Positions 1 to 5,028 of a stretch of 5,028 nucleotides of DNA are shown here, piece by piece. A program made the position numbers and the translations under genes. Source of the stretch: a virus. Taxonomy: Duplodnaviria > Heunggongvirae > Uroviricota > Caudoviricetes. Positions within the stretch are counted from its first letter, which is position 1. Every line of letters starts with the position of its first letter. The notes beneath the pieces were generated by a model that was not told where the DNA came from, did not search any database, and saw only the letters and a list, made by a program, of their open reading frames with translations. Location: the IMG/VR virus record IMGVR_UViG_2690315922_000020, one strand, 5' to 3'.

Positions 1-573
1 GTGAGCTTCCTATCTACTCAGCAAATACATGATCAATGTCTAGCAACAACACAAAAAGCTATTGAATCACTTGGATGGACTAATATCTCTGTAGGCGTTT
101 TGAGCGATGAAGAGAGACGCCAGCTTGAAGATGCAAGTTTACAAAGCCACTTGGACTGGCGATGGGCGATGCAGACCTATCGCGGTGACGCTGTAGATGG
201 AATACTGGATATAACGTTAAAGCTGATCGACCGTGATGAGCCCGAACAGCTTCATGCGGTTATCATTTGTAAATACGACTGGCGCCGTGAGCAATTCTCA
301 ATTTGCATGTTAGAAAACTTCATTTCAGATGAGGATACCGACCTAACAGGCAATGTGTTGATCATCGCACTTATTTACGCGACTACCTTCTGCCAGATCG
401 CGGAGCTTGACGACGTTTATATTCAAGATCCTACTGAAGATGCACAACCGCGTTACAGGAGCTACGGATTTGCCCAAGTATGGCATGACCACAGTAAGAT
501 GTCTGCAGATGTGCACGACATCCTCGACACCATACGACGGAAAGTGAATGGCATTGACCCAGTTGAAGAATGA
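1..573 (+). CDS. Hypothetical acidic protein, about 190 aa; 5' end may be truncated by the window edge
   Basis: Uninterrupted ORF from base 1 (GTG at the window edge, so the true start may lie upstream) to TGA at 571-573. Rich in Asp/Glu clusters (DEERRQLED, DRDEPEQ, SDEDTDLT, DPTEDAQ). No family recognised; a weak GNAT-motif-B-like 'RYRSYGF' is seen but the canonical R/Q-x-x-G-x-G/A loop is absent. Antisense ORFs 343..582 and 431..652 are treated as shadows. Confidence 0.5.
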   Translation: MSFLSTQQIHDQCLATTQKAIESLGWTNISVGVLSDEERRQLEDASLQSHLDWRWAMQTYRGDAVDGILDITLKLIDRDEPEQLHAVIICKYDWRREQFSICMLENFISDEDTDLTGNVLIIALIYATTFCQIAELDDVYIQDPTEDAQPRYRSYGFAQVWHDHSKMSADVHDILDTIRRKVNGIDPVEE

Positions 574-601
574 CAATCTCAATCAGCAGTCGATGGGCTG
601 T

Positions 602-630
602 TTGTTTAATGAACGCATTTGTTATAAAAT
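602..630 (+). promoter_or_regulatory. Candidate sigma70-type promoter upstream of the 57-aa ORF
   Basis: TTGTTT (602-607, 3/6 match to TTGACA), 17-nt spacer, TAAAAT (625-630, 5/6 match to TATAAT); lies about 30 nt upstream of the AAGAGG RBS. Pattern match only. Confidence 0.25.
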
Positions 631-663
631 TATCCGTAAAGTCTATAGCCAAAGAGGTTAACC

Positions 664-837
664 ATGATCAAACAACATAAAAAAATCACTTCTGATAAAG
701 CTATGGCTAGTGCAAGACGCTCTCTCGACTTCTGGGCTTCCATCGACGGCAACAAACTTGCCAAAGTTGGTCAGAAGGAAAAAGACATGGATATGGTCGG
801 GCCGAAGAAAGGTGTAAAGCCAGTAAGCCTCGGATAA
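664..837 (+). CDS. Small lysine-rich basic protein, 57 aa, unknown function
   Basis: ATG at 664 preceded by a strong Shine-Dalgarno AAGAGG (651-656) at 7-nt spacing; TAA at 835-837; followed 25 nt later by a hairpin terminator. Translation: MIKQHKKITSDKAMASARRSLDFWASIDGNKLAKVGQKEKDMDMVGPKKGVKPVSLG (13 K/R out of 57). Below the length cutoff of the supplied ORF track. Confidence 0.45.
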   Translation: MIKQHKKITSDKAMASARRSLDFWASIDGNKLAKVGQKEKDMDMVGPKKGVKPVSLG

Positions 838-861
838 TATTCATCATCCCTATCAAAAAAT

Positions 862-882
862 AAGGCTCCCATTGGGAGCCTT
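862..882. terminator. Rho-independent-type hairpin, potentially bidirectional
   Basis: Perfect 9-bp stem AAGGCTCCC (862-870) / GGGAGCCTT (874-882) with a 3-nt loop. An A6 run lies immediately upstream (855-860), giving a TTTTTT tail on the minus strand, and TTATTCAT lies downstream on the plus strand. Confidence 0.55.
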
Positions 883-889
883 ATTCATA

Positions 890-1042
890 TCATAACGGTT
901 TCCCGTTACCAAATTCGCTCTTCTCTTTGCTGAGCTGCTGTTTAGCATATGTGACCTTTCCCCAGGACGTAGGAGTCGTTAGCTGATCTGCTCCCCTTAA
1001 ACGAATGCAGCATAATATTAGAAAATTCCGCTCTTGGCACAT
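890..1042 (-). CDS. Speculative 50-aa minus-strand ORF ending at the shared terminator
   Basis: ATG at 1042-1040 with a weak AGGA 5 nt upstream; TGA at 892-890, immediately followed on the minus strand by the 862-882 hairpin plus T6 tail. Translation: MCQERNFLILCCIRLRGADQLTTPTSWGKVTYAKQQLSKEKSEFGNGKPL. No family recognised; could equally be a non-coding transcript 3' end. Confidence 0.2.
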   Translation of the reverse strand: MCQERNFLILCCIRLRGADQLTTPTSWGKVTYAKQQLSKEKSEFGNGKPL

Positions 1043-1286
1043 AGCAGTCCTAGAGACAGTGTCGTAAAGTTATGGAGGATCGGTGGGAGGAGGTAAAAAT
1101 CCTCTCATACAAAAATACGTAAAATCGATAACGGCTGATTTTCATTCAAACTCGTGCTATCGAATAGCACAAAGCCTTGCAATCCAGTGCAAAGCTTTGT
1201 GTGTATGAGTTTTTTCTCACATCACCAGGCAATCATCAAACTCCGTATTCCTGGCGTCATTAATTATGTAAGTGATCACCACGAAT

Positions 1287-1314
1287 ATAGCCAGTGCAGA
1301 ATAGCCAGTGCAGA
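1287..1314. repeat. Perfect 14-bp tandem duplication (ATAGCCAGTGCAGA x2)
   Basis: Read directly: 1287-1300 and 1301-1314 are identical. The unit is not a multiple of 3. It lies at the edge of a coding-like segment (1276-1491) that has mutually overlapping ORFs on both strands and no RBS. Confidence 0.9.
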
Positions 1315-1546
1315 ACTGTAACCATCATCATCTTCTGGCAGCGCTTCCCTTCTCCCGTTATCCAGATTAACCGGGTGGTGCTGAGGATGAGTCCGATATC
1401 GCTTGATCCTGAATTCCACATCTATAGCAAAGCGGAAGGATGTCTCAATGTCGTGGACACACAGTGTTACAGCCACAAATCTATAGCCTAAGAAAGGTTT
1501 ATTTTGTAATTAAAGAAGATTTTAAAAACCAGATTACTCATTCATA

Positions 1547-1575
1547 TAGACACCAATCCCCTACAGTCATAAAAT
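1547..1575 (+). promoter_or_regulatory. Candidate sigma70-type promoter for the acyltransferase gene
   Basis: TAGACA (1547-1552, 5/6 match to TTGACA), 17-nt spacer, TAAAAT (1570-1575, 5/6 match to TATAAT), in an AT-rich leader about 45 nt upstream of the ATG at 1618. Pattern match only. Confidence 0.35.
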
Positions 1576-1617
1576 GCCTCTTTTGAATTGCTTTATCTTC
1601 ATAACAAGAGGTTATTG

Positions 1618-2700
1618 ATGCTTCGCCACTTAACAGGACTCAGATTTATAGCTGCATTAATGGTTTATTTATGCCATTTAAATACAGACTATTTTGGTGT
1701 TTTTGTAAAAGAAATGTTTTCCCAGGGATTTATTGGCGTTTCCTTTTTCTTTATTTTATCTGGCTTCATTCTTTCATATTCATATGAAGACAAGCTAAAA
1801 AATGAAGTAACAAGTAAAAGACAGTTTATTCTTTTAAGATTGGCAAGAATTGTTCCAATGCATCTATTATTAGCCATGCCATTTATTTTACTAACCATTC
1901 ACTTAAAGAACTTTGATTTTTCAAAAACCTTAACAAATATTTTATTAATGCAAAGTTGGATACCAAAGGAGGATTACTACTTCTCATTAAATGGTGTATC
2001 ATGGTCTTTGTCTGATGAGCTGTTTTTTTATTTAATGTTTATTCCGTTGATTTATACATCAATTACAAAGAAAGTAATCACTGCAATATCAATTATAACT
2101 CTACTATTAACTATATATTTTTTAAAAATTATACAAACAGAAGAACTTAATCACTGGTTATATTATATATTCCCAGTAAGCCGCTTGGTAGAATTTATTT
2201 GCGGCATGATTATTTACGCTTGCTGGAAAAACAGCCGACAGCCGACAGCCGACAGCCGACAGCCGACAGCCGACAGCCGACAGCCGACAGCCGACAGCCG
2301 ACAGCCGACAGCCGACAGCCTTTTGTTTTTAATTTCACTATTACCTCTGCTAATAGCTATATATTATAGCAACAACATAAATAATAGTCTACGTTATTCG
2401 TTATATTATTTACTCCCCATGGTAATATTCTTTACTTCATGCATCTATCTAAGAAATGGAGTCATTCATACTATCCTCAGTTCAAAAACCCTAGAGCTAT
2501 TAGGGAAATCATCATTTATTTTTTATTTAATTCATCAACCCATTATATTATTTTGCTTTAAAATCTTTGGACATAACCCCGGACCACTCTATTTAATAGC
2601 GCTCCTTGTTATAATAACCATAGTCTCAATCATACTTTATAAATTAGTTGAGGAGCCTTTAGAGCTGATGCTAAGAAAACGAATTTTAGCAGTAAAATAA
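1618..2700 (+). CDS. Integral-membrane acyltransferase, family 3 (Oac/OafA-like O-antigen/LPS O-acetyltransferase type), 360 aa
   Basis: ATG at 1618 with AAGAGG (1606-1611) at 6-nt spacing; the track's upstream start at 1588 is a TTG with no RBS. Polytopic hydrophobic protein with family hallmarks: N-terminal R-x10-H in the first helix (LRFIAALMVYLCH), FFFILSGF, RLARIVP, and a C-terminal SSFIFYLIHQP motif. Very AT-rich, unlike the flanking tail genes. Contains the in-frame heptanucleotide tract listed separately. Stop TAA at 2698-2700, followed by a hairpin terminator. Confidence 0.85.
   Translation: MLRHLTGLRFIAALMVYLCHLNTDYFGVFVKEMFSQGFIGVSFFFILSGFILSYSYEDKLKNEVTSKRQFILLRLARIVPMHLLLAMPFILLTIHLKNFDFSKTLTNILLMQSWIPKEDYYFSLNGVSWSLSDELFFYLMFIPLIYTSITKKVITAISIITLLLTIYFLKIIQTEELNHWLYYIFPVSRLVEFICGMIIYACWKNSRQPTADSRQPTADSRQPTADSRQPTADSLLFLISLLPLLIAIYYSNNINNSLRYSLYYLLPMVIFFTSCIYLRNGVIHTILSSKTLELLGKSSFIFYLIHQPIILFCFKIFGHNPGPLYLIALLVIITIVSIILYKLVEEPLELMLRKRILAVK
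2231..2320 (+). repeat. Heptanucleotide simple-sequence repeat (ACAGCCG) x 12 plus a 6-nt partial unit, inside the acyltransferase CDS
   Basis: Read directly: 90 bp of perfect 7-nt periodicity with no degenerate units. GC-rich tract inside an AT-rich gene, flanked by A5 (2227-2231) and T4 (2321-2324). Encodes N-(SRQPTAD)4-S between two hydrophobic segments. Confidence 0.95.
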
Positions 2701-2703
2701 ATA

Positions 2704-2725
2704 AAACCGCGCTATTGCGCGGTTT
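2704..2725. terminator. Bidirectional rho-independent-type terminator between the convergent acyltransferase and tail operon
   Basis: Stem AAACCGCGC (2704-2712) / GCGCGGTTT (2717-2725) with loop TATT; T-rich tails on both strands (plus: TTTTATCTT; minus: TTTTATTTATTT). Overlaps the 3' end of the small minus-strand ORF. Confidence 0.6.
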
Positions 2726-2891
2726 TATCTTCAGGCTTGATGAATTTTTTACCGTCATATGACCAGCCAATACCAACATCTCCAACACATTTAACTATAT
2801 CCGCTTTTTCTGGCTTAAACTCTGACTTACCATCCCATACAACAAGATTTGTAACGACACCATTTTGTACGACTGCATAAATATCGCTCAT
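2712..2891 (-). CDS. Small protein (59 aa from ATG 2891; 64 aa if GTG 2906) translationally coupled to the tail fibre; candidate fibre chaperone/accessory protein
   Basis: The ATG at 2891-2889 overlaps the tail-fibre TAA (2893-2891) as TAATG. A GGGAG lies about 9 nt upstream. The track's start at 2906 is a GTG inside the fibre's last codons. Stop TAG at 2714-2712. Translation: [59 protein letters not shown]. Much shorter than canonical Tfa/U/G-type assembly proteins (about 170-200 aa). Confidence 0.5.
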   Translation of the reverse strand: MSDIYAVVQNGVVTNLVVWDGKSEFKPEKADIVKCVGDVGIGWSYDGKKFIKPEDKTAQ

Positions 2892-3991
2892 TACTGATAC
2901 TCCCACACAAGAATATATCCCTGATTTCCATTATTTCCTGTCGCTGGGCCTGATGACGCCTTATTGTATTTACCTGTCCCGCCAATACCGTATGTCCCAA
3001 GCATAGTAGTGGTTATACTTTCAACGCCAATCGCCTGATCATCACCAAGTCCAAGTGCCCCACATAAATTTGATCGTGAAACTGAATGGAACAGAATCCC
3101 TTGCCCTGTAGGAATTGGTGCTTCTGTTGCACTTCCCCCTGAAAATGGAGGTACCTGCTGAACTTGAGTTGATCCCCTTCCTCCCGGGCATACAAGCAAA
3201 TCACCAAAGCTTGTATTCCCGCCGTCACCTCCAGAGCCTCCTGGTCCTGTTCCTGCTACACCACCGCTTCCAATAGTTACTTGCACGGATTCAGGTATAG
3301 ACTGATAAAAAAATGCTTTAGCATATGCCCCGTTGGAACCGGCAGCACTTACACCACAGTTATTTGAGGCTGTTGCTGATAAATTGCCACTGGCACCACC
3401 ACCGCCAACGGCTTCCACTATAATTTTCGTTACACCAGGTGATTTGTGATAAGTCCCAGATGATCCAAATACCTGAACCCCCAAAAGCCTTCCTGTTCCA
3501 TCACCAAGTGTTAAATATTGTAGATTTTCCGATACGTTTTTTTTACTTAAAATTTCCCTACCATTTTGAGTCAGCGCTGTCATATCCATTGTTCCAGCAC
3601 CTGTAAAAAATGCCAGCCCATCCGGTATTCCTGTTAAGCTCGACAATGATGTCAGATTATCATTTTTATCCTGTTTATCATTCAGAATGTCTGTCATTCC
3701 CAGGTTTTCGAGAGCCGTTTGCACAGTGCCATCCGATTTGATATCGCCAAACGGATTCTTGCGGCTTAACAGCAGCGCACGAAGCGCGGTAAGAAGCTGA
3801 TCGTGCCGCCCCTTCTCCAGGCTGGCACCGGATGCCTCCACCACGCTGCAGAGTTCTTCCTGCAACATGTCAAAGTAGTCATCATCCAGATCGGTGGCAG
3901 GCGTGCCGGTCTGGGGGTTACCACGGGTAAAACCGTTCTTACCCGCGCCGAACTTATCCTTCTGCGCGGTTTTCGTGTCTATACGATGCAT
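2891..3991 (-). CDS. Phage tail fibre protein, 366 aa, with a conserved N-terminal attachment region and a glycine-rich C-terminal putative receptor-binding domain
   Basis: ATG at 3991-3989 with GGAG about 8 nt upstream, 3 nt after the stop of the DUF2313 gene. The N-terminal about 80 aa ([47 protein letters not shown]...) resembles the conserved N-terminus of prophage tail fibres as I recall it. The C-terminal half is rich in G/S/T/N ([44 protein letters not shown]). Its position after the baseplate-J and DUF2313 genes matches the Mu/e14-type order. Confidence 0.85.
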
Positions 3992-3994
3992 GGA

Positions 3995-4579
3995 TTACTC
4001 CGGATATTTAAAAATTACGTAGGTATGCGAAGGGCAGAGTTTGTTAAGCACACACTCGACAACGGTGTCGCCCCAGATACGCAGTGCGGAATCACAGGGA
4101 TCGCCACATGTCATCCAGGTGGTGTTGGTGGCGGCTGGCATGTTGACCTGCCAGTAATACCGCCATTCCGGCGCATTCACCGCGTCAGTACAGGCAGATG
4201 AGCAGGTGAACGTGCTTTTATCGTATCGCGTGATGGTGGCGTCTGGTCTGCCCAGGGCAGCAAGCTGTGCAAGGTAAAAATCCTCATTAATGCCGCCCGC
4301 CAGATTAATCTTCGCATCCAGCCGTTGCTGACGCTGGCGAAGGGTCTGTGTCCCTGTAGGAATACATTCATCCGGCAGGCCGCACAGACGCTCCCAGCGG
4401 TTTATCAGTTCAGTGGTGGTGCGCGGATCCAGCTCCCGCATCAGGGCATCCGCACGCTGATGAACGCGGGTTAATGACGGTGCCGCACCGGCAATCGCCG
4501 GATCGCTGGCTGACCACGCCGGACCGGGGGGCAACAGTGCCGACAACAGACGGATGTAATCATCGTTTGTCACGTCCAT
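3995..4579 (-). CDS. Phage tail protein, DUF2313 / YmfQ / Mu gp48-like, 194 aa
   Basis: Motifs [43 protein letters not shown] and C-terminal [10 protein letters not shown] match my recollection of the YmfQ/gp48 family. The ATG at 4579-4577 overlaps the upstream baseplate-J stop by 10 nt (ATGGACGTGA); its own stop TAA (3997-3995) is 3 nt from the fibre start. Confidence 0.85.
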
Positions 4580-5028
4580 GAAATCGTCCCCAGTACCGCC
4601 AGTTCATTTTTTGCAATGGAGATATTGTCTGCCGGTGCAAGCAACTGATGGCTGTATTCCCCGTTCGCACCGGAAATCGCTTCACTGATACGCGACACCT
4701 TCAGTTCTCCCTGCGGATAACCATCACGCAGCAGGAACGAACGCAACTCGGCGGTGATGGCAGCCCGTATTTCTGGTGTATCCGGCGTCACACGGATATG
4801 AAAATCCACCGTATGCGCCACCGGCCTGAACACATACAAATCAGAGCCTGCCACCGGGGCCAGTGGCCCGATATGTTGTCTTGCCGCCATTTCCGTTGAT
4901 TCTTCCGGAATGGGATTAATCAGGTCACTGCTGGCAATCATCACACTGTTGTGGATCACAAAATCAGGACACCCGTGTAGCCTCTTTCCATTGATTTTCA
5001 TATTCACAGGGTGATAGCCCATTATTGT
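4570..5028 (-). CDS. Baseplate J-like protein, C-terminal portion (gene continues beyond the window's right edge)
   Basis: The reading frame is open to the window edge (no stop in the 6 nt above the track's Met at 5022), and its position immediately 5' of the DUF2313 gene matches a JayE/Mu gp47-type baseplate protein. The C-terminal sequence (...[22 protein letters not shown]...[11 protein letters not shown]) fits that family by recollection. Stop TGA at 4572-4570. Confidence 0.75.

Follow-up and report, generated by a model that had tools for sequence, protein, structure and literature searches.

The question raised by this locus is whether a long, perfect heptanucleotide repeat in the middle of an acyltransferase gene, carried at the end of a prophage, is a switch by which slipped-strand replication turns an enzyme ON and OFF. 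The DNA in question is a stretch of 5,028 nucleotides (nt) recorded as viral (IMG/VR record IMGVR_UViG_2690315922_000020), hereafter the window, which was found to be the last 5,028 nt of contig BBVO01000019.1 of Escherichia albertii (assembly GCA_001514765.1). The original prediction, made from the letters of the sequence alone, had picked out 12.9 copies of ACAGCCG without degenerate units and named them a candidate for phase variation. Tandem Repeats Finder (TRF) agreed on the array (period 7, 100% matches, no indels), as did a reading of the raw sequence, and a chance origin of a perfect 90-nt array is ruled out. From the evidence set out below, we consider it likely that the tract is a true slipped-strand ON/OFF switch of a prophage-borne O-acetyltransferase of the AT3 family. 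The features on which the argument turns are these:

1606–1611, plus strand: Shine-Dalgarno-like AAGAGG, read from the sequence, 6 nt ahead of the ATG at 1618
1618–2700, plus strand: gene for an AT3-only membrane O-acyltransferase of 360 amino acids (aa) (Pfam PF01757, PHROG, exact-sequence look-up, AlphaFold2 (AF2) model)
2231–2320, plus strand: heptanucleotide tract, 12.9 × ACAGCCG, ON (TRF; unit-by-unit comparison with 23 other loci; protein alleles; AF2 loop)

The open reading frame (ORF) that begins at the ATG at 1618 runs uninterrupted to 2700, so that the tract is in frame with it, i.e., the window carries an ON allele, as had been predicted. This ATG is favoured over a TTG at 1588 because AAGAGG sits just upstream of it, and the RefSeq annotation of orthologues begins at the same codon. 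The tract starts 613 nt into the 1,083-nt gene, at codon 206 of 360, and encodes four SRQPTAD heptads; it is a long and homogeneous tandem repeat inside a reading frame, with a unit length, 7 nt, that is not divisible by 3. Two further ORFs that cover it, 2210–2338 on the minus strand and 2199–2369 on the plus strand, were set aside as by-products, the repeat being open in every frame. The folding energy of the tract as a single strand is a mere -1.9 kcal/mol, weaker than that of any of 200 shuffles, and a hairpin or structured-DNA mechanism was thereby ruled out; an unstructured single strand combined with a homogeneous direct repeat makes plain replication slippage the natural mechanism.

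That the gene is a prophage acyltransferase was also part of the original prediction, and both halves of the description held, given the match of the protein to Pfam PF01757 (Acyl_transf_3) and the adjoining tail and baseplate genes. The protein is identical to WP_059279478.1 of E. albertii, and its Acyl_transf_3 match, the only one in Pfam, covers residues 5–341 (E = 9.7e-31; 107.5 bits against a cut-off of 31), while the phage families matched were PHROG 3333 (O-acetyltransferase, 3e-48) and PHROG 6705 (O-antigen acetylase, 5e-26). The R/K-X10-H motif is present, with R9 invariant, H20 nearly invariant and exactly ten residues between them, as is the RXXR motif in the form R74-L-A-R77, of which R74 is invariant and R77 nearly so. 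An AF2 model built with 77 homologues had ten long helices (pLDDT 92.3, pTM 0.90), and its best fold matches in the Protein Data Bank were the membrane acyl-CoA transferases GWT1 and HGSNAT, both weak (E about 0.2, TM about 0.48). In the model the product of the repeat, residues 208–230, is coil with a pLDDT of about 57 between helices 186–207 and 231–249, and is thus predicted to be a disordered loop between the sixth and seventh transmembrane helices (TM6 and TM7), in agreement with the proposal that a frameshift would truncate the protein after its sixth transmembrane segment. The RXXR motif of the phage enzyme Oac has been placed in the first cytoplasmic loop, and since four helices separate that motif from the tract loop, the latter would, by analogy, be cytoplasmic as well. 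The homologous loop has a median length of 7 aa and a maximum of 14 in 74 homologues, versus 28 in the window allele. Five residues that are invariant in the family, G296, S299, Y303, H306 and E345, all lie downstream of the tract.

Tract length among related copies

The original prediction had proposed a comparison of tract length across related genomes, and this was made at the DNA level for the window and 23 other loci, with further alleles taken from protein clusters. Among isolates of E. coli and E. albertii, prophage contigs and metagenomes, the tract spans 2.9 to 23.9 units and all differences in its length are exact multiples of 7, while the 993 nt of the gene outside the tract have 0–1 substitutions among the copies compared. 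The window gene showed 0 mismatches in 993 nt to copies with 3.9, 9.9, 10.9, 11.9 and 15.9 units. Over longer stretches of the window, 4,946 nt aligned with locus L014 (15.9 units) held 3 substitutions besides the difference of three repeat units, and about 4,910 nt aligned with E. coli KSC1031 (L001, 3.9 units) held 6 besides a difference of nine units. With so few substitutions beside such large differences in the tract, the tract must change far faster than point substitutions accumulate. Five alleles other than a basal one, described below, were recovered at the DNA level:

Window: 12.9 units, ON, perfect ACAGCCG
L014: 15.9 units, ON, perfect ACAGCCG
L022: 11.9 units, OFF, run of ACAGTCG
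L009: 10.9 units, OFF, run of ACAGCAG
L010: 9.9 units, ON, mixed units

The call of a candidate slipped-strand switch was strengthened by this comparison, length varying widely among near-identical copies with in-frame and out-of-frame alleles both in existence. In the protein clusters, in-frame proteins of 346, 353, 360 and 374 aa correspond to 6.9, 9.9, 12.9 and 18.9 units, and out-of-frame alleles to 2.9, 4.9, 5.9, 7.9, 8.9, 10.9, 11.9, 17.9 and 23.9 units. N-terminal products of 214–263 aa end at a stop after either ...TAFCF or ...QPFVFNFTITSANSYIL, which represent the two wrong frames: gain of one unit or loss of two leads to ...QPFVFNFTITSANSYIL, loss of one or gain of two leads to ...TAFCF, and three units change the length by 7 aa in either direction. 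The frame arithmetic put forward beforehand, whereby one or two units shift the frame and three amount to 7 aa, is therefore that of the natural alleles. An OFF allele, of 4.9 units, is carried by a 4.77-Mb E. albertii replicon. Apart from a basal allele described below, the alleles listed include at least 14 that are ON (19 contigs) and at least 11 that are OFF (25 contigs). Among these listed non-basal alleles 57% are OFF, versus 67% expected for random frames and 65.6% of complete genomes for neuO, the proven heptanucleotide switch of E. coli K1 to which we return below.

Dozens of public entries for this gene are split or labelled 'partial', comprising 125-aa C-terminal and 214–263-aa N-terminal ORFs (P0132, P0133, P0142 and others). 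They are OFF-phase alleles, and their annotation gives no hint of the repeat. Rescue of such alleles as a split protein, by way of the 125-aa ORF starting from a TTG in SLLFLIS, was considered and is unlikely, as no Shine-Dalgarno sequence was seen for it.

It is hardly credible that the length or the perfection of the repeat is an artefact of assembly or sequencing. The window does lie at the end of a draft contig, and short-read assemblers can collapse or mis-size long repeats; however, the tract spans only 90 nt and is separated from the contig end by 2.7 kb, the perfect ACAGCCG run recurs at 15.9 units in the independent record L014 (at the DNA level), and perfect runs of 4.9, 6.9, 9.9 and 17.9 units, including that of the 4.77-Mb E. 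albertii replicon, are implied by proteins P0143, P0124, P0125 and P0140. Length differences that are without exception multiples of 7 also argue against error.

If the tract is a switch, replication slippage would add or remove 7-nt units. The frame would be kept in tracts that exceed 3.9 units by a multiple of three, each such step adding one SRQPTAD-type heptad to the TM6–TM7 loop, and all others would cause a frameshift with a stop 5 or 17 codons past the tract; from the window allele, a tract of 11.9 units would give a product of 235 aa and one of 13.9 units a product of 252 aa. OFF products would be without TM7–TM10 and without all five of the invariant residues named above, and judging from this they are very probably inactive. 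By analogy with neuO, switching would be frequent and reversible within a clone. MutS-dependent repair in E. coli handles loops of up to about 4 nt, so slips of 7 nt would escape it, which would explain why both Escherichia cases have 7-nt units.

The commonest allele by far is the basal one, a 339-aa protein (P0003) found on 499 contigs. Its tract of 27 nt, or 3.9 units, has two interruptions (ACAGCCG ACAGCAG ACAGTCG ACAGCC), and at the DNA level it was invariant in 16 of 16 loci, among them the seven gene-bearing complete genomes of E. coli. Longer tracts are runs, in different lineages, of three heptad types, SRQPTAD from ACAGCCG, SRQQTAD from ACAGCAG and SRQSTVD from ACAGTCG, and these three units are the very ones that make up the basal allele. 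Each basal unit has thus been expanded in some lineage, which means that expansion was repeated and independent. In the Citrobacter orthologue, 78% identical, the loop is equally long and shows no heptamer periodicity to speak of. The original prediction had observed that the tract is GC-rich in an AT-rich gene, which is correct (about 71% G+C versus 25–31% in 200-nt windows of the gene), but its suggestion of an inserted module was ruled out: with 3.9 imperfect units already at the E. coli site and a Citrobacter loop of equal length, the tract is an amplification in situ of a proto-repeat and not an insertion. Among about 70 more distant phage-borne AT3 homologues there was no comparable tract.

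A different fate of the tract was seen in L034 (= L016, IMGVR_UViG_2529293142_000029), where it lies at about 2243–2269 and reads ACAGCCG ACAGCAG AAAGTCG GCAGCC, giving the heptad SRQQKVG. In this copy the tract is broken by two extra point changes, and a 1-nt frameshift further on truncates the protein at 282 aa; an intact 339-aa protein, P0021, has the same SRQQKVG loop.

The gene was present in only 7 of 5,426 complete E. coli genomes, at 99.6–99.7% identity and at no fewer than four different integration sites, with carriers originating from pigs, human stool, and rectal or anal swabs. A DNA search of the phage collection gave no match, an exact-pattern scan of one genome per species gave none either, and the metagenome scan produced two loci only, both with the basal allele. 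As most isolates have the short, interrupted and invariant allele, the switch is limited to a minority of lineages. Such a distribution is also what might be expected if the tract were an unstable variable-number tandem repeat (VNTR) without an adaptive role, its frameshifts being one-way pseudogenisation of dispensable prophage cargo and its in-frame changes being tolerated in a permissive loop. We think this unlikely. The rarity of the gene, the stable interrupted allele of most copies, an OFF share near that of an unselected frame, a mid-gene placement atypical of a tuned switch, and decay of other kinds (e.g., the point changes and later frameshift of L034) would all sit comfortably with it, yet OFF alleles keep long homogeneous tracts with 0–1 flank substitutions and are one slip from ON, three different units have expanded independently, and a near-random ratio of ON to OFF is equally a property of neuO, whose switching is proven. 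The physical slippage between ON and OFF is the same in both readings; it is adaptive value alone that differs.

Several considerations nonetheless temper the case for a switch. OFF alleles could be one-way losses, and the basal allele, as noted, does not vary. Codon 206 of 360 is an unusual place for a contingency repeat, and the product in an OFF cell would be a membrane fragment of six helices. With a family loop of 7 aa, the ON form, with 28 aa, may be less than fully active. The census of alleles was drawn from partial cluster listings of what are mostly short-read drafts, in which the longest tracts are possibly mis-assembled. As to the enzyme itself, the nearest annotated phage relative is only 34% identical (a tblastn search of the window protein against the phage collection had phage TL-2011b as its best match and did not find Sf6), and NCBIfam gave no family and no equivalog for any of the five proteins tried.

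Known switches and phage acetylases

The closest precedent, not named in the original prediction, is neuO of prophage CUS-3 of E. coli K1, a polysialic acid O-acetyltransferase gene termed the 'mobile contingency locus', and the resemblance is convergent, not homologous. Both are polysaccharide O-acetyltransferase genes carried as cargo by an Escherichia prophage, with an intragenic heptanucleotide VNTR that is ON at every third copy number and in which three units make one polar, unstructured heptad, and both have a wide natural range of copy numbers with many OFF genomes. The differences are considerable. NeuO is a soluble left-handed beta-helix (hexapeptide) enzyme, whereas the protein here is an all-helical AT3 membrane protein of ten helices with no left-handed beta-helix; the neuO unit is AAGACTC and begins 2 nt after the start codon, in contrast to ACAGCCG at codon 206 of 360. 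The prophage here, with a contractile tail and Mu-type baseplate, is also unlike CUS-3, which is a P22-like phage. For neuO the substrate (the K1 capsule) and the switching are proven, whereas both are inferred here. Published work on neuO gives a sense of how such a tract may behave: its copy number ranges from 2 to 93, cultures derived from colonies with a 21-copy tract contained about 2% shorter and about 5% longer variants, and protein production suffered from the instability of a 12-copy allele.

The heptads of the two proteins, TADSRQP here and KTQDSRL in NeuO, share T-x-D-S-R in the same cyclic order. The shared T, D and R follow from the GAC core of both 7-mers, and the S comes from different codons; the likeness may be a coincidence or a shared constraint, i.e., a repeat with no stop in any frame that yields a polar, unfolded peptide. 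In NeuO the heptads (RLKTQDS) do more than keep the frame, its activity having been found to rise linearly with heptad number, and by that precedent the repeat here could be a rheostat of loop length, in which in-frame heptads tune activity or stability and frameshifts are a by-product. This we judge improbable, more so than a VNTR of no adaptive value. An in-frame series does exist (1, 2, 3, 4 and 6 heptads at the protein level, and 5 heptads, or 15.9 units, at the DNA level), the heptad domain of NeuO is likewise unfolded, and the heptads of both proteins are polar and share the T-x-D-S-R order. Here, however, no free N-terminal extension is involved, the heptads lying between two helices of a polytopic membrane protein, in a short loop. 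The family norm for this loop is 7 aa, so that a benefit from added length is no more likely than harm or no effect, and a 7-nt unit imposes two frameshifts for each in-frame step, a cost that a pure rheostat could avoid.

The original prediction had mentioned repeat-mediated variation of family-3 O-acetylases in other bacteria, and this precedent is real. In Haemophilus influenzae, oafA encodes an AT3-family O-acetylase of lipooligosaccharide that is switched by an intragenic simple-sequence repeat, and a repeat of switching length was reported in 58% of 105 complete genomes, so that there, as here, a sufficiently long repeat is restricted to a subset of strains. The oafA repeat differs in being a tetranucleotide (GCAA) and the gene in being chromosomal and not prophage-borne, in a species that has many such loci.

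In architecture, the protein is most like the serotype-converting enzymes Oac (OacA) of Shigella phage Sf6, OacD of SfII and the acetylase of PhiV10, which are AT3-only enzymes of ten predicted helices with RXXR and R/K-X10-H motifs, borne by temperate phages. These enzymes acetylate O-antigen and block superinfection by the carrying phage, and no repeat-based switch of them was reported in the sources consulted. By analogy, and going by the family name of PHROG 6705, the enzyme here would acetylate a surface polysaccharide, most likely the O-antigen. Salmonella enterica OafA and OafB are likewise AT3 O-antigen acetylases, of which OafB is phase variable, but they have a two-domain AT3-SGNH architecture and the switch of OafB is epigenetic, not repeat-based. 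Loss of the O5 antigen through a 7-bp deletion in Salmonella oafA has been described, as a single deletion that distinguished outbreak isolates, with no long repeat tract reported. No paper describing the present locus was found in a search, of incomplete coverage, of the literature on acyltransferase VNTRs and on phase variation in E. albertii, which returned only the work on neuO; the repeat sequence itself occurred in none of the papers searched.

The prophage end

The remaining features of the window are the following:

1217–1428, minus strand: remnant of an S24 peptidase/LexA-like repressor gene, a pseudogene (RefSeq annotation of L001, 5718–5929, via alignment)
1547–1575, plus strand: weak sigma-70-like promoter candidate, TAGACA-17-TAAAAT (10/12), from a consensus scan only
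2699–2730, no strand assigned: G+C-rich hairpin with a 14-pair stem and T/A runs on both sides (terminator scan)
2712–2891, minus strand: 59-aa ORF, function unknown (PHROG 14370, E = 6e-28)
2891–3991, minus strand: tail fibre, 366 aa, with a glycine-rich C-terminal domain (Pfam Gly_rich_2; PHROG 863/1396, 1.7e-72)
3995–4579, minus strand: Mu gp48/YmfQ-type baseplate wedge (PF10076, E = 1e-26; PHROG 203, E = 1.4e-84)
4570–5028, minus strand: C-terminal part of baseplate J/gp47, the gene running off the end of the window and contig (Pfam Baseplate_J)

The baseplate J/gp47 gene is complete in L009 and L010; L010 and L011 continue with genes for gp46, gp45, tape measure, tube and sheath, and L009 has a similar set. 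At several integration sites the acyltransferase gene was located between host genes on one side and genes for the tail fibre, baseplate, tube and sheath on the other, from which it follows that it is cargo at the end of a myovirus-type prophage. Prophage ends are the usual place of lysogenic-conversion genes. Within the gene's own surroundings, the hairpin at 2699–2730 is a candidate for an intrinsic terminator shared by two convergent genes, and sigma-70-like sites were fewer in the region than expected from shuffles in the consensus scan.

A cassette at about 1157–3766, consisting of the repressor remnant, the acyltransferase gene, the 59-aa ORF and the C-terminal three quarters of the tail fibre, is common to prophages with different baseplate genes (of DUF2612 type; L003, L004, L006 and L007), and the similarity ends inside the tail-fibre gene, at about 3766. 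The 59-aa ORF was always between the tail-fibre and acyltransferase genes in the E. coli, E. albertii and Citrobacter loci, and the trio has the same order in a Citrobacter prophage remnant (L024/L025). That a glycan-modifying enzyme and a receptor-binding tip are inherited together supports, without proving, the notion that the enzyme modifies the phage's own receptor. The acetylated sugar may then be the receptor for the co-inherited tail-fibre tip, and with a switch in the gene, populations of lysogens would be mixed for serotype and phage susceptibility.

Other observations concern the prophage end more broadly. In E. albertii (window 1–4946) it is separated from E. coli copies, with L001 and L014 compared, by only 3–6 substitutions in about 4.9 kb, which implies that this phage or its end was exchanged between the two species very recently. 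The repressor remnant contains a 14-nt tandem duplication (ATAGCCAGTGCAGA twice, at 1287–1315; TRF) that is polymorphic, with 2 copies in most related loci and 1 in L006, L017, L018 and L022, and RefSeq labels the 2-copy forms 'frameshifted'. Between the host genes and this remnant lie two ORFs on the plus strand, 1–573 (190 aa; PHROG 4350, function unknown) and 664–837 (57 aa, no family), which recur in only some of the related prophages (L001, L004, L009 and L010). On the same E. albertii contig, 4–7 kb upstream of the window (L008, 1113–4499), there are two NleG-type and two OspG-kinase-type genes for type III effectors, immediately past the anaerobic sulfite-reductase-like genes by which the prophage end is flanked.

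A probable contingency locus in Escherichia prophages

Repeat-driven phase variation is textbook knowledge for Haemophilus, Neisseria and Campylobacter, and to our knowledge neuO is the only well-studied repeat-driven case in E. coli. One survey found that E. coli avoids coding simple-sequence repeats, and a 2025 review of phase variation described it for E. coli only by way of invertible DNA and methylation switches, with no mention of neuO. The mechanism considered here is itself textbook and has a near-twin in the same genus; what goes beyond neuO is the enzyme family, the placing of the repeat in an internal loop of a membrane protein that is polytopic, and the fact that a tract can be seen arising from a proto-repeat. 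A more ambitious reading, which we hold tentatively and with somewhat less than even confidence, is that this is a second, independently evolved 'mobile contingency locus' of Escherichia seen at several stages of its birth, in which a 27-nt proto-repeat was repeatedly expanded and now switches acetylation of the receptor of the tail-fibre tip.

The OFF alleles account for the 'partial' or split annotation of the gene in many genomes, and the natural series of alleles, from a stable proto-repeat to 24 units, is a resource for studying how contingency loci originate. If the tract is indeed a switch, then the solution found in neuO is convergent and not a one-off, having arisen in an unrelated acetyltransferase family and on a different type of phage, and an internal loop of a polytopic membrane enzyme can accommodate a switch of this kind. 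Taken with neuO, the locus would also point to 7-nt units as a class of repeat able to drive phase variation in enterobacteria proficient in mismatch repair. Where serotype, vaccine epitopes or phage susceptibility depend on O-acetylation, they may consequently be unstable within a strain of E. albertii or of some E. coli.

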